Shown one piece after another: positions 8,181 through 33,722 of a DNA stretch of 55,185 nt. The notes beneath the pieces were generated by a model. The model had not been told where the DNA came from. It saw only the letters and a program-made list of their open reading frames with translations, and ran no database searches. How positions within the stretch are numbered: the first letter of the stretch is position 1; each line of letters begins with the position of its first letter. Source of the DNA: Parcubacteria group bacterium Greene1014_15 (GTDB lineage Bacteria; Patescibacteriota; Minisyncoccia; Phycocordibacterales; VMGT01); contig VMGT01000001.1 in assembly GCA_007376725.1 (NCBI GenBank), forward strand, positions 1-55,185. Reading direction: 5' to 3'. The translations under genes and the position numbers were made by a program.

Positions 8181-8212
8181 GAGTACCAAGGAGTACTCAT
8201 GCCGCGTTCACA

Positions 8213-9411: not shown

Positions 9412-10362
9412 TTATACACTAGACGCAAGATACGCTGCCATTTTTTTGGCAATAAACACGTCAGTCGCAATACGCGACTCAACGGTCATGCCACCAATGT
9501 GGGGAAGCACGATCACATTCTCATGATTCTTCGCGTGCTCAACAAGGGGATAGCTGCTGAATGTTGTACCATCAAAGTCCAGTTCACCAGCCAACACATC
9601 TGTTCCATATCCTGCAATTTTCTTTTTCTGTATCGCCTCAAGGAGCGCGTCTTCGTTCACGATTTTACCGCGTGAAGTGTTGATCAAGTACGTGGATGGT
9701 TTCATTTTCTCAAGCGCTTTCGCATCAAACATATTCTCTGTGTCTTCTTTCAAGTGCACATGTATTGAAATTGCGTCGCTTGCTCGCAAAATTTCGTCGA
9801 AAGAAACTTTTTTATACAAAGAACTATCTACATTCGGGTCAACAAAGATCACGTTCATATTGAATGCTTTTCCATACTGCGCCATGAGTGATCCGAGGCG
9901 GCCAAGACCCACAATGCCGAGTGTCATGTAGGAGAGATTATGCCCGCGGAACAAATCGCGATCCCAGACCCCAGACTTCACAGAATCAAATGCCCAAGGA
10001 GATCGGCGCGCAAGATCAATGAGCATACCAAATGCAAGTTCCGCCGTACCGGTGATCGTCCTTAAAAATGCATCTTCTCCGCGAAGAGAAACAACTGCAA
10101 TTCCCTTCTCCTTCGCATACACAACATCAATGTGATCGAGGCCTGTCGTTGATGTTGCAATTACCTTTAAATTCTTCGCTCGGTCGAGAACGTCCTTGTG
10201 CAGATTCAAGCCGAGCTGCACAAAAATAATATCGAATTTTGAAATACACTCCAGAAGTTCATCCTGCGTTAACTGTTTATACTCGACACTCCCGAGCGTT
10301 TCAATGATCGCACGAGCTTTTGTCGGATATTCGGTAATCGTGTTGAGAATTTTATATGTCAT
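9412..10362 (-). CDS. D-isomer-specific 2-hydroxyacid dehydrogenase family, NAD-binding
   Basis: GIVGLGRLGSLMAQ (the GxGxxG motif), INTSRGKIVNEDAL and PHIGGMT are typical of this family. The ATG at 10362 (MTYKIL) is preferred; it overlaps the neuA stop by 11 nt. The track start at 10404 is possible. Confidence 0.85.
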   Translation of the reverse strand: MTYKILNTITEYPTKARAIIETLGSVEYKQLTQDELLECISKFDIIFVQLGLNLHKDVLDRAKNLKVIATSTTGLDHIDVVYAKEKGIAVVSLRGEDAFLRTITGTAELAFGMLIDLARRSPWAFDSVKSGVWDRDLFRGHNLSYMTLGIVGLGRLGSLMAQYGKAFNMNVIFVDPNVDSSLYKKVSFDEILRASDAISIHVHLKEDTENMFDAKALEKMKPSTYLINTSRGKIVNEDALLEAIQKKKIAGYGTDVLAGELDFDGTTFSSYPLVEHAKNHENVIVLPHIGGMTVESRIATDVFIAKKMAAYLASSV

Positions 10363-11080
10363 ATCCTTTTTTTCGTAACTCATGAAGCATATACTCCGCC
10401 ACAATCATATCAACAGGTTCGTCTATATCAATCGAGCGTTCCTTTGGTGTCTCGTGTCCAACAACATAATCACCGTAGAGACGATTTTTCTCCATAATAA
10501 CATCTCGACGCATCGCGTAGACGGCGCCGCTGCGCCGGTACGCAACGGGAAAATCCTGCCGACGAGTGCCCTCTTCTTCGGGAATAACATACGGAATGAT
10601 CCGATCTCCATCGAATTTTTTAATTTTTATAGGATGGTCACTCCCCACGCGAACAACGGTAACAGCGCTTTCCGCGCCGGAAGAAATGAGTTTTCGGAGC
10701 GTTTCGTCAATGTCTTCGGGAATCCGAAACGGGGAAGTCGGCTGAAGAATAACACAATAATCATACCGACAACCCTTTCTTTGTTCCATTTCTCTAAGTG
10801 CATGCTGCATCACCGGAAGATGCGGAACACGATCGCCGGCCAATTCAGGAGGACGCATGAACGGCACATGACCATTCCATTGCTTGGCGATATCCGCAAT
10901 TTCTTCGTCATCAGTAGAAATAATCAAATCAGTAATCAGGGCGCTTTTGTTGCCAACTTCAATAGAGTACGCAATGAGTGGCTTGCCTCCGATCTCCTTG
11001 ATATTTTTGCCAGGTATGCCCTTTGAGCCGCCACGAGCAGTTATAACACCTAAGATACTATATTTTTTGCTGTTTTCCAT
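10352..11080 (-). CDS. neuA: Acylneuraminate (nonulosonate) cytidylyltransferase, NeuA-type
   Basis: ILGVITARGGSKGIPGKNIK...GGKPLIAYSI...ISTDDEEI...LQPTSPFR is the classic CMP-NeuAc synthetase / CTP_transf_3 signature. Confidence 0.9.
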   Translation of the reverse strand: MENSKKYSILGVITARGGSKGIPGKNIKEIGGKPLIAYSIEVGNKSALITDLIISTDDEEIADIAKQWNGHVPFMRPPELAGDRVPHLPVMQHALREMEQRKGCRYDYCVILQPTSPFRIPEDIDETLRKLISSGAESAVTVVRVGSDHPIKIKKFDGDRIIPYVIPEEEGTRRQDFPVAYRRSGAVYAMRRDVIMEKNRLYGDYVVGHETPKERSIDIDEPVDMIVAEYMLHELRKKGYDI

Positions 11081-12276
11081 ATTTTTTCGGAAACCGCATG
11101 TTCCTCTTTTTCATAAAATATTTTTTGCGTGTAGAGCGATACCGTAGCAATTTTGTACGCAATATTCTTACTCGGTGATTCGCCAAGATACAACGACGAT
11201 GATTGATACTTGCCATGGAGAATCTGCTGACGAATCACGTTCTTGATCGCGCTACTGTCGTGCGGCACATCAACAACATTTGGACCTCGAAGACGCTGTT
11301 GTTGCCGCGTACCAATGTTCACGACAGGTACACCAAGAAACGAACATTCTTTTATACCCGCAGACGAATTTCCTACGAGAGCTTTCGCGTTGCGCAAAAG
11401 ACCGAACCATTCTTCCGGATGCAAATAACGCATAAAACGTATCTTGTGATTTTGCACTTGATCGTTAAAAATACGCAGCTGACGAGAAATCTGTTCTGAC
11501 CCAACGTCAAAATTTGGCCAAAACCACACTGTCTGCACACCGAGATCATGTACCGCGTCAAGTACTGTTTTTGTATGAGAAATACTATCATCAAATTCGC
11601 TCGCCACGGGGTGATAGAGAACAATAATATACTCTTGAGAAAGGTCGAGGGATGCACCGCTGCCCGTTACGGTAATATCAGGAGCATGCATGCCAAGTTT
11701 CGCGGGCACTTCAAGATCAGGGCTGCCGAAATTAAAAATATATTTAGGATTTTCTCCCATCTTTTGAAGCCTGTTCGCTGCATCATTATTTGTCGCAAAG
11801 TGTATATGCGAAAGTTTTGAGACCGCATGACGCACACTTTCGTCAATCGTGCCCGAGAGATCGCCTCCCTCAATATGCGCAATGGATATATTCATCAATG
11901 CCGCTGCAACCGCAGCTGACAGAACTTCGAAACGATCGCCGCGGATGACCACAACGTCAGGTTTGATCTGCTCCAACAAAGAAGAAAACTCTATAATACC
12001 GAGACCTGTTGTTTTTGTCTTTGTGGCATAATTGTCCCCCTCAAGATTGAAGTGCATTTCATGCAAATACTCAAAGCCTGCTTTCGCCAAACGCTCTTTG
12101 ATGCCAATACTTACCGATGTGTATTTAGCGGAAAGAGCTGTTCCGGCAAGAACCACATGAAGCTCGACATCGGAGCGTTTGCGCAATTCGTCAAGCACAA
12201 GAATATTGCGGCTGTAGTGTATAAAACTCGTAATGACAAAACACACGCTTCGTTTTTTGCTTGAAGACATATCCAT
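11050..12276 (-). CDS. neuC: UDP-N-acetylglucosamine 2-epimerase (hydrolysing), NeuC-type
   Basis: VVIRGDRFEVLSAAVAAALMNISIAHIEGGDLSGTIDESVRHAVSKLSHIHF and LVGNSSAGIKECSFLGVPVVNIG match NeuC. The start is taken at ATG 12276, 1 nt after the neuB stop. Confidence 0.88.
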   Translation of the reverse strand: MDMSSSKKRSVCFVITSFIHYSRNILVLDELRKRSDVELHVVLAGTALSAKYTSVSIGIKERLAKAGFEYLHEMHFNLEGDNYATKTKTTGLGIIEFSSLLEQIKPDVVVIRGDRFEVLSAAVAAALMNISIAHIEGGDLSGTIDESVRHAVSKLSHIHFATNNDAANRLQKMGENPKYIFNFGSPDLEVPAKLGMHAPDITVTGSGASLDLSQEYIIVLYHPVASEFDDSISHTKTVLDAVHDLGVQTVWFWPNFDVGSEQISRQLRIFNDQVQNHKIRFMRYLHPEEWFGLLRNAKALVGNSSAGIKECSFLGVPVVNIGTRQQQRLRGPNVVDVPHDSSAIKNVIRQQILHGKYQSSSLYLGESPSKNIAYKIATVSLYTQKIFYEKEEHAVSEKIWKTAKNIVS

Positions 12277-12277
12277 A

Positions 12278-13387
12278 TCATTCAAATACAGATTCTGCAA
12301 TTGGTTCATATTTGTGAAGTGTCCTGCGCAGTTTCTTTCCAATCACCATATCAAATTTATCTGCTGAAGTTCCTTCTATATACATCTTAGGACGCATGGC
12401 AAAGACAAGTTCTTTTGTAAGAACTGTGCCCGCAACGATATCTGCGCTAGCAACAAGCGCTTTGTTGAAATACGGACGAAAAATACTATTCGCTCCTTCG
12501 AGTTCTTTTGAACGATCACCAAAGTAGGGGGTCACATCAATTTCTTCAGCCTTACCTCCGCGTATGTCCTCTATCATGAGCCGCATTTCATCCGGTGTAA
12601 TCGAAGCTTTGTGGTCTGCGCCCCAAAGGTCGCGTGAAAAAGAAAAATGCTTTTCAATGATCCGTGCACCCAATTTAATTGCAGCAAGATCAACTTCATG
12701 TCCGTCAACCGAGTGATCAGAAAAACCAATCACCGTGTCGGGATATTTTTCACGCAAATGAGCAATGGTCGCCAAATTAAAAAGTTCTGGCGGGCAAGGA
12801 TACTGACTCACGCAATACAATACGGCGAGAGCAATACCCTTGCCCCGAATATGCGCGATCACTCCATCGAGCTCTTTGAGAGAAACCATGCCGCTTGAAA
12901 TAATAAGTGGCTTGCCGGTACTCGCAATAAAATCGAGTGTCACATGATCATGCACATCCCCGGAACCGATTTTCCAGAGAGGCACGCCAACCTCTTCAAG
13001 TTTCATTGCTGCCTTGCGACTCATCGGCGTCGAGAAGAAGACAATACCCCGATTATCGCAATGCTGTTTAATCTCTCTCCAAAACAAAAGCGGCGTTGCC
13101 TCCATATTCCTTTTGATCCAACTGTATCGATCACTACCCTTGAAATGAGGCGAGATTACGTCGACATTGATGAATTCATCTTCGAGTTCATGCGTCTGAA
13201 ATTTAACCGCGTCCGCACCGACACTCGTAGCTGCATCAACGAGATCTTTAGCATTTTGTAGATATTCTTCGACCGGGCGATCTTCTAGAGTCTGAATAAA
13301 ATTTTTCCCAATTTCAGCAATCACAAAAACATCATCTCCTCCGATGATTTTGTTTGCTCCTCTAATATATAGTGTTGGCTCTGCCAT
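12278..13387 (-). CDS. neuB: N-acetylneuraminate (nonulosonate) synthase with a C-terminal SAF domain, NeuB-type
   Basis: VFVIAEIGKNF...GADAVKFQTH...KIGSGDV...SDHS...ARIIEKHFS, plus a C-terminal SAF-like segment. Confidence 0.92.
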   Translation of the reverse strand: MAEPTLYIRGANKIIGGDDVFVIAEIGKNFIQTLEDRPVEEYLQNAKDLVDAATSVGADAVKFQTHELEDEFINVDVISPHFKGSDRYSWIKRNMEATPLLFWREIKQHCDNRGIVFFSTPMSRKAAMKLEEVGVPLWKIGSGDVHDHVTLDFIASTGKPLIISSGMVSLKELDGVIAHIRGKGIALAVLYCVSQYPCPPELFNLATIAHLREKYPDTVIGFSDHSVDGHEVDLAAIKLGARIIEKHFSFSRDLWGADHKASITPDEMRLMIEDIRGGKAEEIDVTPYFGDRSKELEGANSIFRPYFNKALVASADIVAGTVLTKELVFAMRPKMYIEGTSADKFDMVIGKKLRRTLHKYEPIAESVFE

Positions 13388-13427: not shown

Positions 13428-14453
13428 TCACCTTATGAGCATGGAAAGCCCAATTTTCTGCATATACCTTTTCCAGCCCCCATACACAATAACGTGGTAA
13501 AGCTTAAGGTATGGCAGGAAAAACTGCGCTCGAAAGAACAGGACATCGCCTTTCAATTTTTTCATATCTCTCCGCAAAACTTCCGGTCGTGTTTTCCTTA
13601 CCACGAAGCGCATGTGATGCATACTCATTCCCCGTTCTTTCTGTCTTTTGAGAACAGAGACTTTTTTATGTTCATCAACATCCATATATACAATTTCAAA
13701 TCCGACAGACTGTATCATCAGTGTAAGCGTTTCCGGCGTAAACATATAGGGATGATCTATTTGCACACTGCTGTAAATCGCCCCTGCGCGGCGGCATTGT
13801 TGACGAAAATTCTTTACAGCTAAAATGATCGTTCCGCCCATTGCAAGATGATCATGCGACCACACAAGAAATCCGCGCGGATCAAGAAGGTGATTAAAGG
13901 TCTGCACGCAAAACACCGTCGAGAGCGAGTTGATTTTGTCGTTTCTAAAATTCTCAAAGAGTGTGTTGTATGTTTCGATTCCTTGCGAGTTCGCGTACGC
14001 AGCATCTGCCGAGGACGGCTCTATGCCAACAACAGAAACTCCCCGTATAGTATCTTTGACTCCAGCAAGCAGGCCGCCGTAAGAAGAACCAACATCTAAA
14101 ATAACTCCCTTGCAAATCCATTTTCGAAAGTCTTCCGCAAGCGCTCTGCCAAACTGGTAGGCATTTTCAAACCCTCTTCCCGCAGGATCAGCATACTTTG
14201 GAGAAGTTTTGCCTTTCGTTCTCAATCGTTCCTCATGGTAGTACGTTTTATAATACCGATCATACTCAGTGCGTGTCATACGAGGATTAATAAAAATGAG
14301 TCCGCAATTTTTGCACATGCACGTCTGCACATTCATTCCGCTTGAAATCTTTCGCGCAAGAACATACAACGAATCTGCGCCGCAAAGATTGCAGGAAATT
14401 TCTTCACATACCGCTGTCTCATATTGAAACCTGCTCTTCTCAGAATGTTCCAT
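13428..14453 (-). CDS. Class I SAM-dependent methyltransferase with an N-terminal Cys4 zinc-ribbon
   Basis: CNLCGA...CKNCG zinc ribbon. Motif I is VILDVGSSYGGLL. The layout is Methyltransf_23-like. Confidence 0.8.
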   Translation of the reverse strand: MEHSEKSRFQYETAVCEEISCNLCGADSLYVLARKISSGMNVQTCMCKNCGLIFINPRMTRTEYDRYYKTYYHEERLRTKGKTSPKYADPAGRGFENAYQFGRALAEDFRKWICKGVILDVGSSYGGLLAGVKDTIRGVSVVGIEPSSADAAYANSQGIETYNTLFENFRNDKINSLSTVFCVQTFNHLLDPRGFLVWSHDHLAMGGTIILAVKNFRQQCRRAGAIYSSVQIDHPYMFTPETLTLMIQSVGFEIVYMDVDEHKKVSVLKRQKERGMSMHHMRFVVRKTRPEVLRRDMKKLKGDVLFFRAQFFLPYLKLYHVIVYGGWKRYMQKIGLSMLIR

Positions 14454-14457
14454 ATTA

Positions 14458-14526
14458 GAGCATATCCATTATCTAACGCCTCGGCGAAATGTTCAAAATT
14501 CGTTGCGGTTAAATAGTGGATAGGCC
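14458..14526. repeat. MITE-like element B (miniature copy) filling the intergenic spacer
   Basis: Termini are TATCCATTATCTAA and TTAAATAGTGGATA (14/16 complementary). The interior CGCCTCGGCGAAATGTTCAAAATTCGTTGCGG aligns at about 39/51 (by eye) with the left half of copy C. It occupies essentially the whole 74-bp gap between 14453 and 14528. Confidence 0.8.
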
Positions 14527-14527
14527 A

Positions 14528-15601
14528 TTACATACAGGCAACAGAGACACGTTCTTGAATAACGATTCTCCTCTCGGCTGTCATGCAGTTATTAAGTATA
14601 TTCATTCTTCCTGAATCGAGCTCAAAAAGAGGCGCTTTTCCCTCTGGAACATCGTTTGCATCCATGCGCCCCAATAAAAGCGGAGATTGGAGTGAAGTAT
14701 TACATGCACGCTCCATCGTAAAGCCAAATTTGAAACCCTCGTCTTCGGCAACAGCGGCACACAATTGCGACACAAGATCCGGAGCCCCAAAGGGGTACGA
14801 AATGCCCTGTATTTCGTGCGCATCACTGCCTGCAATAGCTGCAACAACATCGCGTGTTTTTGTAATTTCCATACGAAGCATAGCATCATCAAGAGATGCC
14901 ATCGGCACATGAGAATATCCATGAACCCCGAGGCTTTCCAAATGTAACAATTCTCGAAGACCCTCTCTTGGAATATACATTTGCTCACAAAATACCGCTT
15001 CATTTGGGACTAGCGCGTTGAACATTCGATTGATAATCGCATCACGAATGGTTATCGGCAATGAGCTTTTATTTAATAAAAACTTGAGTCGCGCTTCATC
15101 AATGTCATCATACAAATACTGCGATCGAATCAACGCATCTGAAACACCAAGCGAATCTAAAGAGAAAATGCTACCCGTCAAATAGAGATATTCTTCCGCA
15201 ATGATGCTTAAAAACTTTTTTGGCGAAAGTTGCGCGCGACACCAATGTATTTTGTGCACTGACAAAACACGGCGTTCCTCATAAGGCAATCCAGACACAA
15301 AAAAAATCGCAGGTATGCCATGCTTCCTTAAAAGAGGGAGCGCAAGATCATATTGACCTCGAAACCCGTCATCGAATGTCATAATTGCCGCGTATTTCGG
15401 CAAAAATTTTTCTCCGGAAAGCACAGCAAGCATCTCTCGCTGTCCGACGAAAGTAAAAACGGATTGCAAGGCCTTTATTTGGCGCTCTAATCGCTCAATT
15501 GAAACAGGATATATCCCCTGCGCGTAGGTATCTTCGTTGCCTATATAATGATAATTGATCGCGAGAAGCATACTACATTGAAATGATTGGGTATTTGGCA
15601 T
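14528..15601 (-). CDS. Polysaccharide deacetylase (NodB-homology) family protein
   Basis: MTFDDGFRGQYDLALPLLRKHGIPAIFFV and a later HGYSH histidine motif. Confidence 0.82.
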   Translation of the reverse strand: MPNTQSFQCSMLLAINYHYIGNEDTYAQGIYPVSIERLERQIKALQSVFTFVGQREMLAVLSGEKFLPKYAAIMTFDDGFRGQYDLALPLLRKHGIPAIFFVSGLPYEERRVLSVHKIHWCRAQLSPKKFLSIIAEEYLYLTGSIFSLDSLGVSDALIRSQYLYDDIDEARLKFLLNKSSLPITIRDAIINRMFNALVPNEAVFCEQMYIPREGLRELLHLESLGVHGYSHVPMASLDDAMLRMEITKTRDVVAAIAGSDAHEIQGISYPFGAPDLVSQLCAAVAEDEGFKFGFTMERACNTSLQSPLLLGRMDANDVPEGKAPLFELDSGRMNILNNCMTAERRIVIQERVSVACM

Positions 15602-16367
15602 CCCGTTCGTTTTTGTTTTCTGTATAGGTTTTCATCATACCATCGGCAAAATTTTTGCGCATCTTTTTCACCGCATCATCGCAGAAATCTCTCCTGCGGA
15701 AAACCTTACCAAAAGACAGGTCTTGCACCATCGGTATACATGTTCCTTCATGATACGCAAGAAGAGCGTCTATATAGTTTTCGGTTCCGGCGATAATGGT
15801 CTTGCACCCGAGGCTGTGGCAAGTATCATTCACTGCCGAAGCGGGGCGTATTTGTGTCAATATTGCCCCCGCATCCACCGCAGGCGTTGCGAGATGAATT
15901 GTCGTTCCGACACATTCTGGAAGAGTATCGACCAGCGGCCAAAAATTTGTGCCGGAGCCGCGATAATAGGGGGAAAGTCCCAGATGCATATTCAATATTC
16001 GTTTTTCATAAAAAGAGAGAAGTGGATTTTTTATGATCGAGGTTCCAAATAGCACAATGTATTCCGGATTGCGTGTCTTGATCCACTCGAAAACCTCACG
16101 ACTGTTGGCGCCTTCCCGGGGCATTGTGTAGGTGTCATCAGGCGAAATAACTACGTCCGCGTGGTCGGCAAAATACGTTTCTTCTGCAGCATCACGATCG
16201 CACAGGTGTTCGTCCATAATCGTCTTTTCAGTCTCGATCTCGCTCCTTTTTTGCGCGTTCTCCTTCGCTTCACGAACAAGACCTACAACGGTAAATCGCT
16301 TGGCAAAAGAGTTCACAAGAAAATTATGCCGACGCGCATTGCTTGAAAGAATTGCTATTGTGGGCAT
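15573..16367 (-). CDS. Formyltransferase-family protein (probable sugar N-formyltransferase)
   Basis: ILNMHLGLSPYYRGSGTNFWPL and TTIHLATPAVDAGAIL match the Formyl_trans_N catalytic core (the N..H..D triad region). Confidence 0.78.
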   Translation of the reverse strand: MPTIAILSSNARRHNFLVNSFAKRFTVVGLVREAKENAQKRSEIETEKTIMDEHLCDRDAAEETYFADHADVVISPDDTYTMPREGANSREVFEWIKTRNPEYIVLFGTSIIKNPLLSFYEKRILNMHLGLSPYYRGSGTNFWPLVDTLPECVGTTIHLATPAVDAGAILTQIRPASAVNDTCHSLGCKTIIAGTENYIDALLAYHEGTCIPMVQDLSFGKVFRRRDFCDDAVKKMRKNFADGMMKTYTENKNERDAKYPIISM

Positions 16368-16391: not shown

Positions 16392-17759
16392 CTAAAGTTG
16401 TCCCAATAAAAACAAACCAATTCGTTCCCCCGATCGTCCATCAGTGAAGACGCACTGCGTTTCAACAAGTCTCATCCGTCCTGCGCGATCAAGTGAGGGG
16501 TCATCGAGATATCTTTTTACAGATGCGCAGAATTCCGACACCGACGACACCAATCGGATGCCACCTGTCGCAACAGCTTTTTTATAATGCTCCATTCCAT
16601 AGTACTGCATGGGCGATTCCCGGAGCATCACCTGTCCTGCGGTAAAACCGATATTGATGACCGGTGTATCAAAAAGCGCTGCGTCAATCGAGATGCTTGA
16701 TACATACGAAACGACAATATCCGCATGATAAAGCGTATCTGCGAGATGCCACACTTCCTTTTTATTCATATCCCAATCAACACTGCGGCTCTTTGTAAAA
16801 CGAACGCCAGGGTAGTCGTAACATAAGTGCGGACGAAGCTTAAGCGCCTTTTGATCAACAAAATCATTCGGCTGAAAGCGAACTAATATGTGCAGATTAT
16901 TACCGAAAGCGCCAGAGGCATTTAAGCCATAGAGCACGTCAATCATTGTCCATTCCAGATTGCTAAAGGCTTTGCCTACAGGAGCATACACCATAAGTTT
17001 TTTCCTCGGATCTGCATGAATATCTTTGAAAAAATCGTCTCTCGATTTTGGCGTATGAATATAGTATTCATCATATTGTGCAATACCCCCCACATAGATA
17101 CGCTCTGGGCTCGCATCGTGTAACTCAATCAGCTCCTGCTTAACAAGAGCATTGTAGACAACAAACCAATCTGGCAACAGACGCAGCATAGAGCGAGAAG
17201 TTGTCTGATCCCACGAATTAATAAGCCCAACACTTTTCACTCCGCGTCTTTTCGCTTCTCGAAGTATGTGTATTTCTTTGTCATCAAAAAGATGGGCAAG
17301 AAAAACAAGATCAGGCATATATGTATCAAAATATTTTGCGTACGTATGTTCTCGTACGAAAAGAAAATCAACGCGCCGAACAAACTTGCGTACGAGTGAA
17401 CGAGCCAAGAACGCATTGGTTATTTTTGCTATCCAGTGCACAAGAAGATTTCTGCCTGAATCCCGCAACATGAAACGTAAAAGATCCGTCGTATCGGTTT
17501 TAAGTAACATAAATTTTAACTTGCCGAAAAACGCATCTATATTTGGCGTATGTTGGGTGCGCACTACTTCGTAGATTAAGCGATCGTTTTGAAACTCTTT
17601 CTTATAATAATCCACACGTTCTTGACTATTGCAAAGAAGAACAATCCGAACACACACATCTTTAAGAAGTGTTTCAAGTATGGAGGTACGCAAAATATTT
17701 TTTGCTTCGACTCCCTGAAATATTGCAATTAAAATCGTTTTTTGCTGTTTGTTTTTCAT
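16392..17759 (-). CDS. Uncharacterised GT-B/TagF-like family protein, paralog 1 of 5
   Basis: 455 aa. It shares LINSWDQTTSRSMLRL, GGIAQYDEY, LVRFQPND, ADIVVSYVSSISIDAALFDTPVINIGF and the C-terminal DGRSGERI with the four other copies. Confidence 0.8.
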   Translation of the reverse strand: MKNKQQKTILIAIFQGVEAKNILRTSILETLLKDVCVRIVLLCNSQERVDYYKKEFQNDRLIYEVVRTQHTPNIDAFFGKLKFMLLKTDTTDLLRFMLRDSGRNLLVHWIAKITNAFLARSLVRKFVRRVDFLFVREHTYAKYFDTYMPDLVFLAHLFDDKEIHILREAKRRGVKSVGLINSWDQTTSRSMLRLLPDWFVVYNALVKQELIELHDASPERIYVGGIAQYDEYYIHTPKSRDDFFKDIHADPRKKLMVYAPVGKAFSNLEWTMIDVLYGLNASGAFGNNLHILVRFQPNDFVDQKALKLRPHLCYDYPGVRFTKSRSVDWDMNKKEVWHLADTLYHADIVVSYVSSISIDAALFDTPVINIGFTAGQVMLRESPMQYYGMEHYKKAVATGGIRLVSSVSEFCASVKRYLDDPSLDRAGRMRLVETQCVFTDGRSGERIGLFLLGQL

Positions 17760-19090
17760 TCTCCAGTATGTGCACGTAAAAAATCTACGAGCACTGCGGC
17801 AAGATTCTGACTTGCCTGTCCCAATAATCCTCCTGTTTGCTCATCAATAATTTTTTTCCTGCCTTCTGCATGCAGGGCAGGATTTACACGATATGCCGCA
17901 AGAGCTTCGCCAAGTTCGTCAGCGCTTTTTACATACCACACACCCTTGCTTGCTAGGATACTCTTAAAATGGTCGTAATCGTAGTAACGCGCAATGCTCT
18001 CCTTGTATAAACGCTTATGCGTACCGTCAAAACCAACGAGAATAACAGGTGTATTAAACAGCGCGGCATCAACACACATCGTTGAAGGACCTGTTACAAC
18101 GATATCAGCGCAGCAAAGCAGGTTTTGCAAATGCATGTCGTCTGCTCTCGAAAGTTCAACAAACTTCCGGCGGGCAAAACGCTGCTTGTCCACCTGTTCA
18201 AAAAAAATACCGTCATGCGCAGAATCCGTGGAAAGACACTGCACAGTATCTGCAACCGGCAATCGCACGATAATGCATTCATCTTTCGAGCGCAGTGATG
18301 CGAGTATGTCAAGGAGCTCGCAGTCCACGGTATTATTCTTAATATAACGGTCACCGGTTGCAATATACAACAGGATTCTTTTTGACAAAGCGGACACATC
18401 GGGCATAAGCTTCTCGTGATCGCAGGTCTTCTGCTCACAATAGGCATCATAGTGTGGAACGCCCACAACTTTTAGTTTGTTGCGCGCTATGCCATGGTAA
18501 GCAATTGCATCAGATTCCGTAAGTTTATTTTGAACAAGGAGCACGTCCGGCACAAGGCGCAAAAGTCCCTTGATCGTCAAATTATCCCACGAACGCACCA
18601 TGCCAATCAAGGGCACTTTTCTCCTTCGTGCTTCATGCATGAGTCGAACATCAATTTCATTTTGCACATCTGTAGAACATACAACATTCGGGGCATATTT
18701 CTTGAATAAGCCATCGAATAAGCCACGAGGTGTCAAAAACAAACTAAGAAACCGTACGAACCAACGGCCAAAATGCGATTGCAGCAGAACAGAAAAATAC
18801 GCGCCTCTCCCATTCATATCCGACATGCGCTTGATTGCTACAGATCGAGTTGCGAGCGCCGCAAGAGAAAGATTCCGCATCCAGATATCACGAGCCGAAA
18901 GAGCAACATCGATACCTTCTACAATAATGCGATCGCCGCCATATTCCTTCTGCATATATACTTCGCTTCTCCTCGGACAAAGAATTACAATTCGCACGTC
19001 CGCTGAAGAAACAAGCCGTTTCGGCACCGATGTCGCAAATATATTTCTCGATATAAGAGGGTGAAAACTTGATATGAATATGGTCTTCAT
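17756..19090 (-). CDS. Uncharacterised GT-B/TagF-like family protein, paralog 2 of 5
   Basis: 444 aa. MKTIFISSFH, MVRSWDNLTIKGLLRL, VGVPHYDAY, IVRLPVAD, ADIVVTGPSTMCVDAALFNTPVILVGF. It has ATGA overlaps with both neighbouring genes. Confidence 0.8.
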   Translation of the reverse strand: MKTIFISSFHPLISRNIFATSVPKRLVSSADVRIVILCPRRSEVYMQKEYGGDRIIVEGIDVALSARDIWMRNLSLAALATRSVAIKRMSDMNGRGAYFSVLLQSHFGRWFVRFLSLFLTPRGLFDGLFKKYAPNVVCSTDVQNEIDVRLMHEARRRKVPLIGMVRSWDNLTIKGLLRLVPDVLLVQNKLTESDAIAYHGIARNKLKVVGVPHYDAYCEQKTCDHEKLMPDVSALSKRILLYIATGDRYIKNNTVDCELLDILASLRSKDECIIVRLPVADTVQCLSTDSAHDGIFFEQVDKQRFARRKFVELSRADDMHLQNLLCCADIVVTGPSTMCVDAALFNTPVILVGFDGTHKRLYKESIARYYDYDHFKSILASKGVWYVKSADELGEALAAYRVNPALHAEGRKKIIDEQTGGLLGQASQNLAAVLVDFLRAHTGE

Positions 19091-20097
19091 GCAGTTGCTT
19101 TTTCTCGTGAAGCATGCATGCCCGTATCGAGAAAAGGTTTATCTTCCCAATTATACACCCACACTCCATCTACTCCCGGACTTGCAAAACGACCTCGATA
19201 ATAGTCACGGTTCAGGAGTTCTGTCGATGTCATTTTTCGCTGTGGCGTACCGAGCAAACTTTGCCATGCGGGTATCTCTTTTTCAACAAGTGTTTTTTGC
19301 TGTTCTTTTGATAGAATTCTAAAATCATTCAATTCTTTAAGAAGCGCAGGTGTGATCGAAACAGGCCCATCTTTTGTTTGATCTTTTTCAAGAATTGTAA
19401 AATGGCGTTCCACAAAATCGGCACCGAGCATAATCGCAACTTTTGCCGCCTTAATGCCATCACGCTCGACATGTGTATGATCCGACCATCCAACTTTATT
19501 TGTAAATGCACGAAGCCATTTCATTCGCGAAAGATTTGCGCTATCAAGCGCATTTGGATAACTCGTCACACAGTGCAAAAAAGAAAACTCTTTACCGAGA
19601 CTCGTTAGCAATTTTGCCGCTTGGCGAATTTCCTCATCATGCGTTGCTCCCGTAGAAACGATAAGGTGCTCGAAATGATCTGCGAGTTCACGCAACATCG
19701 GAAGACTCGCGCAATCATAGCTTGCCACCTTAACAGTCCGTTCCGGCCAAGGCAAACCAGCTATAATCGGAATCGTATGGCGGGAAAAAATTGTCGTTAG
19801 AGGCACGACACCAAACTCCTGACATTTCTCAATGAAAAAAAGGTGATCATCCAAAGAAAGATCGAGCTTTGACAAACGCGCTTTCTCGGCGTTATATGGA
19901 CGCTTAATCGCCTGTACTGTCCCATCAGCAAAAGTGACTCCCTCTTCGAAACGATCCCGCTTTGTTACATCGCTCGAAAATATTGACTGCATTTTCACGT
20001 AGTCCGCGCCACTATCCGCTGCGGCCTTAATCATGCGCCCAAAGAGTTCGCGATCGCCGTTGTGATTCTGGCATAGCTCGACAATAAGTTTTGTCAT
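19087..20097 (-). CDS. NeuB-family (sialic-acid-synthase-like / SpsE-like) aldolase-type synthase, second copy
   Basis: LIVELCQNHNGDRELFGRMIKAAADSGADYVKMQ...VKVASYDC...WSDHT...GADFVERHFT. It is divergent from the 12278-13387 copy and has an atypical C-terminus. Confidence 0.8.
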   Translation of the reverse strand: MTKLIVELCQNHNGDRELFGRMIKAAADSGADYVKMQSIFSSDVTKRDRFEEGVTFADGTVQAIKRPYNAEKARLSKLDLSLDDHLFFIEKCQEFGVVPLTTIFSRHTIPIIAGLPWPERTVKVASYDCASLPMLRELADHFEHLIVSTGATHDEEIRQAAKLLTSLGKEFSFLHCVTSYPNALDSANLSRMKWLRAFTNKVGWSDHTHVERDGIKAAKVAIMLGADFVERHFTILEKDQTKDGPVSITPALLKELNDFRILSKEQQKTLVEKEIPAWQSLLGTPQRKMTSTELLNRDYYRGRFASPGVDGVWVYNWEDKPFLDTGMHASREKATA

Positions 20098-20107
20098 ACA
20101 AAAAAAA

Positions 20108-21286
20108 TTAGTTAATCGATAAAAAATCTTTCACAAATATCTCCGCGCACACTTGATTTCCATCAAGTGTTCCCCATCGTTTTAGTATTTTCTCACGCAT
20201 CTCTGCATACTTCTTTCGCACCACATCTCCTTTTGCAAGTATCTCCGCAAGCGGTTGCCCGCGATACACCGTTCCGAAACCAAGCTCCTCAACCATTTTG
20301 TTATTGAAATAAATTTCAGGATCATCCAGCGGATCAAAGTCAGGCACCAGAATCGGTGTTCCGCAAAGCATGGACAGCCACACCGACCCCCACCCTGAAC
20401 GCGCAAAGTGAAGGACAATATTTTTGTTCAGTCCGTGATTCGGTGAAAATCGCTGAACACTCCCCGGCACGCTGTCTAAATCATTCGCATAGAGCCGTAG
20501 TCCAAAATCCCGCGCCTCCCTGTATAACCTTTCTAACCCCGGAATTCCTGTGACGGTTACAAATATCCCCGGTTCTATTTCTTCGTTATTCTGAATCATA
20601 CGCGCATCGCGAATCGGTGGCACAAGAATTTCCGAAGGATATTTGGGAAGATATGATTCTCTTCCGGAAAAAGTGCCGGGAAACGCAACAGCATGCACAC
20701 GCTGTTCTTTTTCAATAGAATGAGCAACCTCGATTCCTCGTTCAAGCACTGCAGGTTCTACATTCACCTTTGTTCTTCCAGCCTCGAGTGCGCCGCGAAG
20801 AATGTCTTCGATATATCCAAACGTTGTAAAGTATGACGGCGCCACGCCAAAGCGAATTCTTGGCGAGCGATTGATCTCAACGACAATGTTTTTACCTTCG
20901 ATTGAAACATGCTCGCCAGAAAGCGTCTGGGCATCGATTATCCCCGAAAGGTGCTCGCGCGCTTGTTTCGAAACTTCTTGTGCGGTACGCACCCACACAG
21001 CAAGAGCAACTGTATATGTATTGTCCCCATAAAAAACACTTCGCAAAATACCGCCAAGTTTTTCATCAAGAAGCAATTCACCTGGATATTTTTTTTCGTG
21101 TTCGCCAAATTCCTCGAGCATAATACACCTCTGCTTTTCTCCATACACCCATGGGATAAGACAAACGAGTCGTGGGCGGCCTTCCCGTTCAAGAACGTCG
21201 TTGAATGCAAGTGCGAGCTCGGTCGTACGCAGAAAAGGACCAATGCCATACGCAAAATTTGTCACGAGCAGTTGCTGTGATGTCAT
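20108..21286 (-). CDS. Hypothetical GT-B glycosyltransferase-like protein (GT1/GT28-type C-terminal motif)
   Basis: 392 aa. The C-terminal HFARSGWGSVWLSMLCGTPILVPDFDP..DPEIYFNNKMVEELGFG resembles the GT1/GT28 nucleotide-sugar-binding motif (H.G.G...E....G.P....P...DQ..N). I do not recognise the N-terminal half. Confidence 0.45.
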   Translation of the reverse strand: MTSQQLLVTNFAYGIGPFLRTTELALAFNDVLEREGRPRLVCLIPWVYGEKQRCIMLEEFGEHEKKYPGELLLDEKLGGILRSVFYGDNTYTVALAVWVRTAQEVSKQAREHLSGIIDAQTLSGEHVSIEGKNIVVEINRSPRIRFGVAPSYFTTFGYIEDILRGALEAGRTKVNVEPAVLERGIEVAHSIEKEQRVHAVAFPGTFSGRESYLPKYPSEILVPPIRDARMIQNNEEIEPGIFVTVTGIPGLERLYREARDFGLRLYANDLDSVPGSVQRFSPNHGLNKNIVLHFARSGWGSVWLSMLCGTPILVPDFDPLDDPEIYFNNKMVEELGFGTVYRGQPLAEILAKGDVVRKKYAEMREKILKRWGTLDGNQVCAEIFVKDFLSIN

Positions 21287-21295
21287 AGGATAGTA

Positions 21296-23050
21296 TCAGA
21301 GCCTTCGATATGAGATTCCTTTCGTCTTGAGAACCTCCTCTTTATTATACAACGCCCACGTGTCAAAAAGAGCAGCGCCGATATGCGCTTTTGTCATGAG
21401 CGAGCGCACAGAAAGTTCTTCAAGTGCCGGATGGTTATTCATGACGAGGACAGCATCCGCATTTTGAAAACCGTCTTCAACTTTCCGCACAACCTTCACG
21501 CCAAGTTGCTCAATTTCTTCCTTCGAAACAACGGGGTCATACCCATGTATATTTGCATATCCCCGTTCAACCAAATACTTTGCGAGCGCGACCGTCGTCG
21601 AGCCGCGCAGATCAGACGTTGGCGGATTTCCCTTGAACGCAAAGCCAAGAATAAAAATTTTGGATTTCTGTTTCGATGTGAGATAATCAAGATGCTTGAT
21701 CACATCTTCCGCGAGATTTGTAAGAATCGTTTCATTTACTCGCCGCGCATATTCAAAAAGTTTCGGTTCATATCCGACAACCCGCGCTCCATATGCAAAA
21801 ATAAGCGGATCCTTCACGAGACAATAACCGCCAACTCCTGGAGAAGGCTTGGGTACATTACTGCGAGCGTATCCCATGTTGGCTGCCTCGATTACTTTAT
21901 TCGTATCAATATTCCACTTCTGGCATACCATAGAGACTTCGTTCGCAAAAGCAAACGTCACGTCCCGATACGTGTTGTTGATAAGTTTCACCGCCTCCGC
22001 TTCTTCTGTCGAATCAACGACCGCAAGAGATTTTGTCATCATACTGAAAATGCTTGCCGCAAGGTTGCTACTCGCCTGATTGATACCGCCGATCACCTGC
22101 GGCAGGGTCCGCAACTCCGCAAGCGCCTTTCCTTCAATCGTTCTCTCTGGAGCAAAGACCGCAAAGAAACCTTCTCCACCGCGAAGCCCCGACGCAGCTT
22201 CAAGAATTGGAACAATTATATTTCTCGTCGTTCCGAGTGGCACAGTCGAACGCAGAATCACAATATCACCACGCTTAAGAACTTTGCCAATATTGCGTGC
22301 GGCATCTTTAAGATACGTCATATCGGGGACATTGTCTTCGCCAATCGGCGTTCCAACAGCAATGAAATATACATCGCATCTGTTGTTCAATTCAAAATTT
22401 TCGCTCACAACAAATTTTTTACCAACGTGATCCTGAAGCAACACATCAATCCCTTCTTCATAAAAAGGAGTTTTTTTCTGCTTGATACTATCGCGCGTCC
22501 TCTCGTTCACATCGACACCAACAACTTTAAATCCAAGGTCAGCAAGTGTCAGAGCGAGTGTTAAACCCACATACCCAAGTCCGGCGACACCGATCCTCTT
22601 GAAACGTACGTCGCTTCCCTGCCAGAGATCATAAAAAGAAAGAACATCGGTCACACGTTTTGCTTCGTCCACCATAATGATCTTATCGTAACGATGCTCG
22701 TGCACACCGCGATTCCTAATTTCCTCATTCACAAGAGAAAAAATGCCGGCATTGTCCATCGGACCAACAATTACAAAAGCATCTTTATTCATAATATCCG
22801 CAAGCGGCGCTGTGATGCGCGCGCCTTTCGCAAGAGCTCGGCGAATATCACCATCTGTCACTAGGCCGAGGAGCTTACCACTCGTCTCTGTCACGAGCGC
22901 AATTCCCGCCGGAATATTTGTCTCCTTTGGATTATTCTTCGTCATAGCACGCAAAGCATCTTTGACTAATGCCGTTCGCCGCAAACTAATATCGCGGATA
23001 TTTTTTTCTTTTTTTGAAAGCAATGCAACGTTTTGTACAATTGTTGCCAT
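21296..23050 (-). CDS. CBS-pair domain fused to a UDP-glucose/GDP-mannose-dehydrogenase-family nucleotide-sugar dehydrogenase
   Basis: The N-terminal ~150 aa has CBS-like repeats (GIALVTETSGKLLGLVTDGDIRRAL...IIMVDEAKRVTDVLSFYDL). This is followed by IGVAGLGYVGLTLAL, FIAVGTP, the catalytic-Cys region GVGGYCLVKDP and GFAFKGNPPTSDLRGS. Confidence 0.88.
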   Translation of the reverse strand: MATIVQNVALLSKKEKNIRDISLRRTALVKDALRAMTKNNPKETNIPAGIALVTETSGKLLGLVTDGDIRRALAKGARITAPLADIMNKDAFVIVGPMDNAGIFSLVNEEIRNRGVHEHRYDKIIMVDEAKRVTDVLSFYDLWQGSDVRFKRIGVAGLGYVGLTLALTLADLGFKVVGVDVNERTRDSIKQKKTPFYEEGIDVLLQDHVGKKFVVSENFELNNRCDVYFIAVGTPIGEDNVPDMTYLKDAARNIGKVLKRGDIVILRSTVPLGTTRNIIVPILEAASGLRGGEGFFAVFAPERTIEGKALAELRTLPQVIGGINQASSNLAASIFSMMTKSLAVVDSTEEAEAVKLINNTYRDVTFAFANEVSMVCQKWNIDTNKVIEAANMGYARSNVPKPSPGVGGYCLVKDPLIFAYGARVVGYEPKLFEYARRVNETILTNLAEDVIKHLDYLTSKQKSKIFILGFAFKGNPPTSDLRGSTTVALAKYLVERGYANIHGYDPVVSKEEIEQLGVKVVRKVEDGFQNADAVLVMNNHPALEELSVRSLMTKAHIGAALFDTWALYNKEEVLKTKGISYRRL

Positions 23051-23051
23051 A

Positions 23052-23843
23052 TTATTTTTTATTAAGCCTCATGTTCTTTAAAACCGCCTCAGCCGTCCAA
23101 AAATCAATAATACTATTCATATCAACCGATTTTTCAGAAGGCATTACATACGGCAACACATGGTCGCCAAACACACGTCCGTGTTCCATGATAACTTCGC
23201 GCCTGGAAGCGTAGAGTCCACCGTTACGCCAATACACAGGCGGGAGATCCTGACGTCGCACTGTTGAGCGTTCTTCAAGACCTTCGACATACTGAACTAA
23301 CCTGCCATCGGTAATTTTTTTCAATTTGATTGGATGATATTCATTAACCTGACACACACTCACAATGGACTGCGCATTAGATTGCAAAAGCATTCTAAGC
23401 GCCCTATCTATATCTTCGCTTGATACAAAGGGTGTCGTAACATGTAGTTGCACGACATAATCAAACATGCACTTCTCGATTTTCTCGACTGCTTTTACCG
23501 CATGTTGCAACATCGGCACATCGGGCGTTTTGTCCAGCGCGAGCTTTTTCGGACGCCGGAGTAATACCTCATTGCCACCATATTTCTTCGCGATGCGCAG
23601 GATTTCATCATCTTCAGACGAAACAACAACACGGTCAAGCAATACGCTCCCGAGAGCTGCAGTAAGCATATAATACAGCAATGGCTTTCCTCCCAAAAGT
23701 TTGATGTTTTTGCGGGGAACACTTTTTGAACCGCCGCGTGCAGGAATAACACCAAGAATGAGAGGCTTCTTTGCCTCCTCTCCTCCTGTTTTCTTGTGAG
23801 ATGTTATTTTTGTTATTTTTGTATTCGTATAGTGCATACACAC
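23052..23843 (-). CDS. Acylneuraminate cytidylyltransferase-family protein, second copy
   Basis: ILGVIPARGGSKSVPRKNIKLLGGKPLLYYML...VSSEDDEI...LHVTTPF. The N-terminal ~25 residues are of uncertain reality. Confidence 0.87.
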   Translation of the reverse strand: MCMHYTNTKITKITSHKKTGGEEAKKPLILGVIPARGGSKSVPRKNIKLLGGKPLLYYMLTAALGSVLLDRVVVSSEDDEILRIAKKYGGNEVLLRRPKKLALDKTPDVPMLQHAVKAVEKIEKCMFDYVVQLHVTTPFVSSEDIDRALRMLLQSNAQSIVSVCQVNEYHPIKLKKITDGRLVQYVEGLEERSTVRRQDLPPVYWRNGGLYASRREVIMEHGRVFGDHVLPYVMPSEKSVDMNSIIDFWTAEAVLKNMRLNKK

Positions 23844-25100: not shown

Positions 25101-26453
25101 TTATTTCAAGATACTGTCTAAAAAATCAACACTTCGTTTATATGAGTACATATCACGGAAGCGTACATACTCGTCGAGAACACGCGTACGCCCCTCTCGA
25201 TCGCAAGCAGGATGTGCAAGATACTCATTGATCTGTGCAACCATTTCATCAAAGCTTCCCGCAAGCGCAACCGCATGCATATGGAGAATTGGTTCATAGT
25301 GGCGATGTAAATATCCCTGCCGATACTTTTCCGGATAATAGATATTGATCACCGGTTTGTCGAAGATCATCGCCTCAAGCGACATAGTCGAGCGGTAATT
25401 GATTACCACATCAGAATACATAAGCGTGTATTTCGTGTTGAGCAAATCATCTTCTTCCATTTCAACATTCGTTGCCAGACGCACATTCCGATCCTTTCCC
25501 GCAGTCTCTATGTGGAAATTTTTGTATGACGATCCGTCCATAAATTTCTTGAATTTATCAATCTCTTCCTTCGGATGGAGTCGTACAAAGATATTCGGAT
25601 ATCCTGAAAATTTTCCTGCGGCGCGCGCCTCGATCAGATCCTCAAGCAGAATATGATCGCGATCGTAATTTCCTGCGGTCACTGTCGTCAGCAAAATTGT
25701 TTTCTCCGCAGGATCGAGGCCTTTGCTGTTAAGAAACGCTTCTCTGCTTGGTTCATTCGATTGTTTTTGAAAGTATTTATCAAAACGTATGATGCCCGAT
25801 ACGAACACATGGTCATCTGGATACAAGTATTCGCGCACAGCAATATCTTTGATGATACGCGTCCACACAATCATATAGTCCACACGGCGAAAATGTATGC
25901 CGCCGTTGTGGAGATTGTCCCAACTGAAATCAATGCACACGGTCGGTATCTTGTTCTGTTTGGCGAGAATGACTGCCTGTGCGTCATAGTGTGTAAAGCC
26001 TGGAGTCGGCGTTATTGAGAGAACCGGCTGGTATTTTTGTACATACTCTGTAAATTTCTTGCATTTCGGTAAAAAACGCACTTCAAGAGCAGTAAACAGT
26101 TCGGGTGTGATCCAGCCAGACGGCACGAGGAGCCCAATCATTCGCATCACTTTTCGCCTCCAATCAGCATATCCGCGATTCCGATGCTTTCTGATAACTG
26201 GTTCAAAATCATATTTGCGTATGAGGGGATTTCGCAAGAAGTCACCAAAAAGAATCCAGAACTTGGGCTGGTACAGTTCCCAAGGAATATATGTTGCATG
26301 AGCAAGTTTTGGATAGGGCTTGCCACCATGCAAAATTTCAGGCAAAGCAAAAACAATGACGCGATACTTTGTCGATAAATACTGTATATATTCCGTTCTT
26401 AATAGATCGGAAGAGTAGATGAAGTTGGGAATAAAAAGAAAAACAGTTTTCAT
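25101..26453 (-). CDS. Uncharacterised GT-B/TagF-like family protein, paralog 3 of 5 (most divergent; retains the HP motif)
   Basis: 450 aa. MKTVFLFIPNF, IDFSWDNLHNGG, SGIIRFDKY, FVRLHPKEE, SDVVINYRSTMSLEAMIFDKPVINIYY. Confidence 0.75.
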   Translation of the reverse strand: MKTVFLFIPNFIYSSDLLRTEYIQYLSTKYRVIVFALPEILHGGKPYPKLAHATYIPWELYQPKFWILFGDFLRNPLIRKYDFEPVIRKHRNRGYADWRRKVMRMIGLLVPSGWITPELFTALEVRFLPKCKKFTEYVQKYQPVLSITPTPGFTHYDAQAVILAKQNKIPTVCIDFSWDNLHNGGIHFRRVDYMIVWTRIIKDIAVREYLYPDDHVFVSGIIRFDKYFQKQSNEPSREAFLNSKGLDPAEKTILLTTVTAGNYDRDHILLEDLIEARAAGKFSGYPNIFVRLHPKEEIDKFKKFMDGSSYKNFHIETAGKDRNVRLATNVEMEEDDLLNTKYTLMYSDVVINYRSTMSLEAMIFDKPVINIYYPEKYRQGYLHRHYEPILHMHAVALAGSFDEMVAQINEYLAHPACDREGRTRVLDEYVRFRDMYSYKRSVDFLDSILK

Positions 26454-33712: not shown

Positions 33713-33722
33713 ATCGTGTGAG

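Follow-up and report, generated by a model that had tools for sequence, protein, structure and literature searches.

The window analysed here, a stretch of 55,185 nucleotides (nt) from the Parcubacteria group bacterium Greene1014_15 (contig VMGT01000001.1), encodes five divergent proteins, A to E, within a surface-glycan locus. These are most likely, if by no means certainly, glycosyltransferases of differing specificity that use nonulosonic acids (NulOs) activated with cytidine monophosphate (CMP); donor, acceptor and chemistry are what we infer from conserved residues, profile comparisons and gene neighbourhoods. By the profile comparisons A-E are members of a large clade inside the TagF-like superfamily, here called the SWDN clade after its invariant motif. 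The public name of some of its members, cytidine diphosphate (CDP)-glycerol glycerophosphotransferase, is probably wrong for the clade.

Family placement of the five paralogs

All five open reading frames (ORFs; Table 1) were found where the original prediction had put them, on the minus strand and with lengths of 440-463 amino acids (aa), and its claim that they can be aligned over their full length was borne out. Pairwise BLASTP expectation (E) values range from 7e-11 (C against E) to 5e-80 (B against E, the closest pair at 34% identity), with identities of 23-34%, mostly over full length and far beyond chance, and these alignments identify A-E as true, old paralogs. Every shared motif block that had been quoted recurs in a MAFFT alignment of the five, namely SWD(N/Q/H), a VQN-type motif, G..(Y/F/H)D, VR.., the AD(I/V)V...P(V/T)I block and DG(R/H)..(E/G)R, and it is indeed C only that keeps the His-Pro (HP) pair (RLHP), the other proteins having RFQP (A), RLPV (B), RLPI (E) and a gap or PYV (D). 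The tandem genes B and A overlap as described, their junction reading ATGA on the coding strand, and the NeuB2/B junction (19087-19090) likewise reads ATGA.

An identical copy of A is present in NCBI assembly GCA_007375765.1. In NCBI record VMEX01000001.1 (positions 805-2004 of our locus L001) the gene upstream of A is called as a protein of 399 aa, which is B minus 45 residues; the start deposited there is probably wrong, since the 444-aa ORF opens with MKTIFI, as in the family consensus, and shares an ATGA with the NeuB2 stop.

The AlphaFold model of A (predicted local distance difference test (pLDDT) 94.4, predicted template modelling score 0.92) has a GT-B fold of two Rossmann-like domains, and model and sequence together show that residues 73-134 of the N-domain form a helical insertion, basic and amphipathic, with 12 Lys or Arg. 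A Foldseek search of this model against the PDB returned only GT-B structures, with MshA and uridine diphosphate (UDP)-N-acetylglucosamine 2-epimerases ranking first, TarL 30th and TagF 48th, all at template modelling (TM) scores of about 0.5, which does not discriminate within GT-B. A deep profile-profile alignment with hhalign, of 160 clade members against 145 TagF-family representatives, gave 99.5% probability (E 2.6e-23), and together with the model it upholds the earlier proposal of a GT-B fold with TagF-likeness. The homology extends over N-domain strands beta6 and beta7 and the whole C-domain. A shallow hhalign comparison with TagF and TarL aligned the C-domain alone, and a low mact setting forced an unreliable N-domain alignment. 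The diversity of the 145 representatives came from a representative search, a homolog search with TarL as query having returned only near-identical TarL orthologs; a TagB probe served as search bait only, and the conclusions rest on the authentic sequences retrieved.

The likeness to TagB/TarB, TarF, TagF and TarL (PF04464; PDB 3L7I, 8VA1) includes, beyond the GT-B fold, the G.P..D motif, the (K/R)-x-[H]-P position, a DYSS-like nucleotide block, the C-terminal DG..S.R motif and the basic amphipathic helical insertion in the N-domain. The original prediction had held that the family could not be placed, which proved too cautious: all five match PF04464 (Glyphos_transf), partially, at 19-27 bits (A 19.4, B 22.8, D 23.5, E 24.5, C 27.0), where the gathering score of 22.1 bits leaves A just below it and the other four barely above, and hundreds of public orthologs carry the domain or the name. 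The 541 homolog clusters of A and the 325 of C come nearly all from Patescibacteria/Parcubacteria metagenome-assembled genomes, most with PF04464 and some under the names 'CDP-glycerol glycerophosphotransferase family protein' or 'TagB/SpsB family', the latter being what JGI calls several A orthologs. A PDB sequence search with a profile of the five paralogs matched TarL alone, in its C-domain only (E 2e-4, at a threshold of E<=0.001). A scan of species-representative genomes added relatives from Acidobacteriota, Acidimicrobiia, Thaumarchaeota, Cyanobacteriota, Planctomycetia and Gammaproteobacteria, and S/G-W-D-N is kept in all examined relatives from these phyla with a clean ORF.

Other GT-B families were considered. 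UDP-N-acetylglucosamine 2-epimerases (Epimerase_2/NeuC), one of the profile checks that had been suggested, reach a TM score of about 0.55 in Foldseek, but the sequence match is only E 0.039 and 12.8 bits against a 236-bit cut-off, and the true NeuC is encoded separately; this candidate was rejected. A Pfam scan of all five proteins gave no match at E<=1 to Capsule_synth (KpsC/KpsS-type; GT107, GT118), and KpsC structures are absent from the PDB sequence and Foldseek matches listed. For the sialyltransferase families GT38, GT52 and GT80 there was no Pfam match at E<=1, no PDB sequence match and no entry in the Foldseek top 50. A tblastn search of PLSDB plasmids with C gave no match. Our literature searches on Patescibacteria NulOs, and on glycerophosphotransferases together with legionaminic acid (Leg) or pseudaminic acid (Pse), turned up nothing on the SWDN clade.

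The closest named family is BFO_1060 (NCBIfam model NF046086), which is the top NCBIfam match for A, C, D and E and for 10/10 relatives from other phyla (E 2e-4 to 2e-21); the top match of B is a weak one to TarB, with NF046086 a weak second (E 5e-3). For the TarB, TarL and TarF models the E values are no better than about 1e-3 to 1e-4, and C also matches TIGR04396 at 44 bits. Some relatives match NF046086 over nearly the whole profile. The bit scores, 16-76 for the window proteins (A 46, C 76) and 38-65 for the ten distant relatives, all lie far below the 200-bit cut-off, for which reason we set the SWDN clade apart as a separate, sister clade to the BFO_1060 family. In Tannerella forsythia, Tanf_01245 is the transferase for the Pse derivative Pse5Am7Gra and TFUB4_00887/BFO_1060 that for a Leg derivative, deletion of the genes removing the terminal Pse or Leg derivative from the O-glycan, as followed by knock-out, complementation and mass spectrometry (Tomek et al. 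2017, PMC5420450). These proteins of 442-445 aa are, like A-E, TagB-like GT-B enzymes with no transmembrane segment, and their genes lie beside CMP-NulO genes with a methyltransferase between, as SWDN genes also lie beside NulO genes. The described proteins are from T. forsythia (Bacteroidota) alone, whereas the SWDN clade is found mainly in Patescibacteria and also in Thaumarchaeota, Acidobacteriota and others, and has 2-5 paralogs per locus against one in T. forsythia. The claim that the five enzymes are of an 'undescribed kind' was thus overstated, since TagB-like NulO transferases have been described genetically (PMC5420450) and have an NCBIfam model. The kind has been known since 2017; what differs in the present clade is the failed cut-off, the distribution in the Candidate Phyla Radiation (CPR, the Patescibacteria) and archaea, and the multi-paralog architecture.

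Catalytic residues and a proposed mechanism

TagB, TagF and TarL require two invariant histidines, of which the first (TagF H444, TarL H300), stacked on the Trp before it, serves as the base activating the acceptor hydroxyl, while the second (TagF H584, TarL H433) contacts the alpha-phosphate (PMC10901376). PDB mutant entries confirm the identity of both in TagF and TarL, and among the TagF-family representatives the first, as W-H, is present in 145/145 and the second in 144/145. In the N-domain of the SWDN clade there is no column with a conserved His (n=160). The invariant residues of the clade are P149, W183, D184, G225, D230 and R294 (n=160, A numbering), with W-D kept in 160/160; D230 is part of the G.P..D motif common to TagF, and D184 is clade-specific. 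At the position of the second His, where the alignment is secure, A has Gln, B and E have Pro, D has a gap or a non-His residue and only C has His. This residue is subtype-specific, being His in 42/42 and 26/26 C-type and Pro in 26/26 B-type sequences, and the second His is usually absent in the A-type as well.

It is likely that W183-D184 is the structural counterpart of the W-H pair, that is, a His-to-Asp replacement. The equivalence is drawn from an ungapped profile scan, in which 'SVGLINSWDQ' is best placed on TarL 'SQEVIQVWHA' (z=4.3, with the hhalign alternative ranking fourth at z=2.6), and from the secondary-structure order, which agrees between the models of A and TarL as strand, about 20 residues, strand and then W-D or W-H. 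Deep hhalign lays the TarL WH strand on a confidently modelled helix of A, and this N-domain placement was rejected as structurally inconsistent. About 22 residues that TagF enzymes hold between the motif and the next strand are missing in the SWDN clade, which would account for gapped aligners placing W-D elsewhere. The absence of a conserved N-domain His holds whichever way the W-D and W-H motifs are mapped.

The SWDN clade also differs from TagF-like enzymes in lacking the polymerase-type N-terminal domain and in having no CDP-polyol genes nearby, and its chemistry is likely to be glycosyl transfer, not phosphodiester formation. The original prediction had spoken of 'linkage-specific transferases or polymerases', of which transferases is still the best reading; the polymerase option is less likely, because TagF-like polymerases carry an extra N-terminal domain (PMC10901376) and A-E are bare GT-B proteins. 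They are probably cytoplasmic, membrane-peripheral, single-domain enzymes. A CMP-NulO donor is proposed because CMP-NulOs are the only cytidine-activated donors of the operon and because the cytidine nucleotide is bound by the conserved half of the protein.

The reaction could then proceed as follows. The C-terminal domain would keep a TagF-type cytidine-nucleotide pocket, marked by the (Y)xS(S/T)...(D/E)A..FDKP block, and would accept CMP-NulOs from the two NeuB/CMP-synthetase cassettes of the same operon-like array. Invariant Asp184, packed against invariant Trp183, would replace the catalytic-base His of TagF and activate the acceptor hydroxyl for attack on C2 of the CMP-sugar; departure of CMP would be aided by invariant Arg294 and the subtype-specific residue 296 (His in the C-type; Gln, His or Pro in others), and perhaps also by His391. 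From one paralog to the next the acceptor or the linkage would differ, and the NulO added might be differently tailored. The acceptor may be an undecaprenyl-linked oligosaccharide built with GT4 and GT2 enzymes; Wzx would flip the finished glycan, which the Wzy_C-TPR protein would then pass on.

The GT-B bacterial sialyltransferases (GT80, GT52, GT38) are marked by D/E-D/E-G and HP motifs. The proposed likeness to them (for example GT80 PmST1) would lie in a CMP-NulO donor, metal-independent catalysis, an N-domain carboxylate as base and a C-domain His-Pro contacting the CMP phosphate, which here would be the R-x-H-P of the C-type; the comparison draws on what is established for those families (Freiberger 2007, as cited in later work). 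They differ in that there is no detectable sequence similarity and that A, B, D and E are without the HP histidine.

Gene linkage and competing readings

NeuB2, B and A are linked by their ATGA overlaps and lie between two NulO cassettes. A module of the order Wzx-C-(MT)-B-A-(FormT)-MT-NeuC-NeuB-CMPsyn-2HADH-WzyTPR (MT, methyltransferase; FormT, formyltransferase; CMPsyn, CMP-NulO synthetase; 2HADH, 2-hydroxyacid dehydrogenase) recurs co-directionally in many Patescibacteria loci. B and A are adjacent 20 times in other loci, the gene order of cassette 1 downstream of them is conserved in many Patescibacteria loci, the formyltransferase and methyltransferase recur at the same position and Wzy_C-TPR at the module end, and Wzx adjoins a family member, usually of the C-type, in many other loci. 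Relatives of the remaining subtypes are rarer, with seven D-type and only two E-type in other loci. Counted over loci of 15 kb or more, a CMP-synthetase is present within 10 kb of the family gene in 27/35 from Patescibacteria, 5/5 from Thaumarchaeota and 3/6 from other phyla, as raw counts. A gammaproteobacterial locus has the CMP-synthetase right beside the family gene and NeuB on the far side of a gap, and in a planctomycete locus CMP-synthetase and NeuB lie about 2.7 kb upstream of it. In the five Thaumarchaeota loci homologs of cassette 2 adjoin a family member, comprising CBS-dehydrogenase, a gap of about 0.9 kb, NeuB2 and CMP-synthetase; the identity to the window proteins is 49-52% for NeuB2 and 41-42% for the CBS-dehydrogenase. 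This sharing between Patescibacteria and Thaumarchaeota suggests an inter-domain transfer of the whole of cassette 2.

More tentatively, and with rather less confidence than we give to the function of A-E themselves, the SWDN clade may represent a new family, at the CAZy level, of CMP-nonulosonate glycosyltransferases derived from TagF-like phosphotransferases by a swap of the catalytic His for Asp, a family that is the main NulO-transferase family of Patescibacteria and ammonia-oxidising Thaumarchaeota, and that travels with a NeuB/CMP-synthetase cassette common to both domains. Were this so, the surface glycan built by the conserved C-B-A trio would be a multi-NulO or multiply sialylated one and could matter for the host presentation of these ultra-small, mostly episymbiotic cells.

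Several observations weigh against a CMP-NulO glycosyltransferase function. The nearest characterised relatives, those of T. forsythia, are backed by genetics only, and the BFO_1060 family was set beside the SWDN clade by the NCBIfam profile and the published description. Bacillus subtilis SpsB (TagB/SpsB family, COG1887), likened here by description, is a TagB-like protein in the legionaminic-acid sps operon, and Leg is still transferred to the spore surface after its deletion (PMC7439481); TagB-likeness in a NulO context is therefore insufficient proof of NulO transfer. With regard to the W-D motif, MAFFT in three modes sets it opposite a TagF insertion, neither MAFFT nor hhalign as gapped aligners puts it on W-H, and the TarL model, poor at pLDDT 61 and under 50 for residues 299-348, supports the equivalence only in part. 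A phosphotransfer reaction, too, could in principle have an Asp as its base. The linkage counts refer to SWDN-clade genes alone, and Acidobacteriota relatives are mostly unlinked to NulO genes (1/8 linked). Within the window, no NulO genes adjoin D and E, which may use other donors, and there are five transferases for two NulO synthases.

The last three of these observations would be accounted for if some or all of A-E, especially D and E, used other donors such as a heptose nucleotide or other nucleoside diphosphate (NDP)-sugars, the NulO linkage reflecting only a shared glycan island. D and E are flanked by Wzx and GT4 genes and by GT4 and aminotransferase genes, respectively, and the leading Foldseek matches are generic NDP-sugar GT-B enzymes and epimerases. 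We regard this as rather unlikely, however, given that the best-conserved part of the family is the C-terminal block, with which TagF and TarL bind the cytidine nucleotide, that CMP-NulOs are the only cytidylyl-activated donors encoded in the scanned window ORFs, and that family genes are linked to NeuB and CMP-synthetase, often as adjacent or near-adjacent genes, independently in Patescibacteria, in Thaumarchaeota, in a gammaproteobacterium and in a planctomycete. A teichoic-acid-like polymer, made by A-E as CDP-glycerol or CDP-ribitol polyol-phosphate transferases with Asp184 as base instead of His, is quite unlikely. The absence of both histidines essential to TagB, TagF and TarL, of which C keeps the second only, speaks against it, as do the operonic partners, which are NulO genes, and the BFO_1060 model, which scores much above those for TarB, TarL and TarF. 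A search with a TagD probe, which covered the window and 54 related loci, found no TagD-like gene in the window (best E 0.27) and a match in one of the 54 loci, and Pfam scans turned up no CTP_transf_like or IspD domain in the window ORFs tested. What commends a polyol-phosphate function is the firm superfamily homology seen by deep hhalign, the PF04464 matches around the gathering score, TarL as the sole PDB sequence match and the weak LtaS/Sulfatase-like gene in the locus; Patescibacteria are also thought to have Gram-positive-like envelopes.

An elaboration that would be compatible with CMP-NulO transfer concerns the translationally coupled B-A pair, which might form a hetero-oligomer in which the B-type is a catalytically weakened scaffold or acceptor-binding partner. 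The repeated adjacency and the ATGA overlap fit such a pairing, TagF and TarL are obligate oligomers (PMC10901376), and in the B-type the second-His position is invariably Pro and His391 is changed to Asn in 12/26. The B-type nevertheless keeps the clade-invariant W183, D184, D230 and R294, and the second His is usually missing in the A-type too, which makes the idea very unlikely in our judgement.

Few transferases are known that act on legionaminic, pseudaminic and related nonulosonic acids, namely the Maf and FlmG proteins, KpsS1 and, on genetic evidence, the enzymes of T. forsythia. The shortage limits both the prediction of glycan structures and the enzymatic synthesis of these sugars. 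If A-E and their relatives are indeed CMP-NulO glycosyltransferases, the clade would supply candidate enzymes by the hundreds, falling into three or more conserved subtypes, a systematic mis-annotation in CPR and archaeal genomes would be corrected, and many Parcubacteria would be predicted to display elaborately tailored sialic-acid-like glycans. W-D against W-H would then be a sequence rule that separates glycosyl transfer from phosphotransfer in the TagF superfamily. Should this be wrong, the clade would still be a TagF-like group that works without the two 'invariant' histidines and would be mechanistically informative. As a prediction, the clade promises a pool of useful enzymes, a His-to-Asp rule that can be tested and a plausible correction to annotation.

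Layout of the locus

Scans of the neighbouring genes with Pfam and NCBIfam delimit a surface-glycan region of about 50 kb, nearly all on the minus strand (Table 1). The gene content matches what the original prediction had described, with two NeuB-type synthases, two CTP_transf_3 cytidylyltransferases, one NeuC, a heptose-type set (SIS, GHMP kinase and NTP_transferase) and a weak Sulfatase/LtaS-like ORF; GT2, GT4, AsnB and FkbM methyltransferase genes are also present. From 23843 down to 5709 the genes form one packed co-directional array, which begins with CMP-synthetase 2, the CBS-UDP-Glc/GDP-Man dehydrogenase, an ORF of no assigned function, NeuB2, B and A, and continues with formyltransferase, deacetylase, methyltransferase, NeuB1, NeuC, CMP-synthetase 1, the 2-hydroxyacid dehydrogenase, another unassigned ORF and Wzy_C-TPR. 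Among the paralogs outside the array, C follows a methyltransferase and adjoins the weak LtaS/Sulfatase-like gene, and E lies between an epimerase/aminotransferase set and two GT4 genes.

Table 1. Positions of the five paralogs and of other features in the window
Feature	Positions	Strand	Length	Remarks
Paralog A	16392-17759	minus	455 aa	A-type, SWDN family; key residues W183-D184 and R294-F-Q296-P
Paralog B	17756-19090	minus	444 aa	B-type, SWDN, R-L-P-V
Paralog C	25101-26453	minus	450 aa	C-type, R-L-H-P; sole paralog with the HP histidine
Paralog D	33723-35114	minus	463 aa	Rarer D-type, NWDH; adjoins Wzx flippase
Paralog E	49640-50962	minus	440 aa	Closest to B; adjoins two GT4 genes
NulO cassette 1	9412-13387	minus		Pfam and NCBIfam
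NeuB1	12278-13387	minus		Cassette 1
NeuC	11050-12342	minus		Cassette 1; NCBIfam 330 bits against a 236-bit cut-off
CMP-NulO synthetase 1	10352-11080	minus		Cassette 1
2-Hydroxyacid dehydrogenase	9412-10404	minus		Cassette 1
Methyltransferase, polysaccharide deacetylase and formyltransferase (tailoring genes)	13428-16367	minus		Between cassette 1 and A; Pfam
NulO cassette 2	19087-23843	minus		Pfam and NCBIfam
CMP-NulO synthetase 2	23052-23843	minus		Cassette 2
CBS-UDP-Glc/GDP-Man dehydrogenase	21296-23050	minus		Cassette 2
ORF without assignment	20108-21286	minus	392 aa	Cassette 2; no Pfam or NCBIfam match
NeuB2	19087-20097	minus		Cassette 2
Wzy_C + TPR protein	5709-8189	minus	826 aa	O-antigen-ligase/O-oligosaccharyltransferase-like; Pfam; end of conserved module
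Wzx-type flippase (Polysacc_synt)	32330-33919	minus		Pfam; ORF as listed
ORF	8213-9139	minus	308 aa	No Pfam or NCBIfam match
ORF	28705-30090	minus	461 aa	No Pfam or NCBIfam match
ORF	44419-46221	minus	600 aa	No Pfam or NCBIfam match
IS3-type transposase	4180-5010	minus		rve, rve_3, HTH_21
PemK/MazF-type toxin gene	53499-53888	minus		

The NCBIfam equivalog cut-offs for NeuB, PseI and PseF lie well above the scores of the two NeuB proteins and the two cytidylyltransferases, whereas NeuC passes its own. By their domain matches all four are clearly NulO pathway enzymes; since the scores lie under the Neu- and Pse-specific cut-offs, the NulO species made at the locus are not nameable from sequence, and they may be unusual ones. 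The D-2-hydroxyacid dehydrogenase gene stands directly after that of the CMP-NulO synthetase in most copies of the module. One may speculate that the enzyme supplies a hydroxyacyl N-substituent, by analogy with the glyceroyl group of T. forsythia Pse5Am7Gra.

As listed, the Wzx ORF shares 197 nt with D; a start at the ATG of 33712 (residue 70) would remove the overlap. As the Pfam match begins only at residue 81, this downstream ATG is probably the true start.

The IS3-type transposase gene lies at the module edge, between an FkbM methyltransferase gene and Wzy_C-TPR, and the PemK/MazF-type toxin gene stands at the far end of the locus, directly downstream of the last GT4 gene. Four ORFs of the window had no Pfam or NCBIfam match, and the two of 392 and 600 aa among them have homologs next to family members or NulO genes in seven other Patescibacteria loci.

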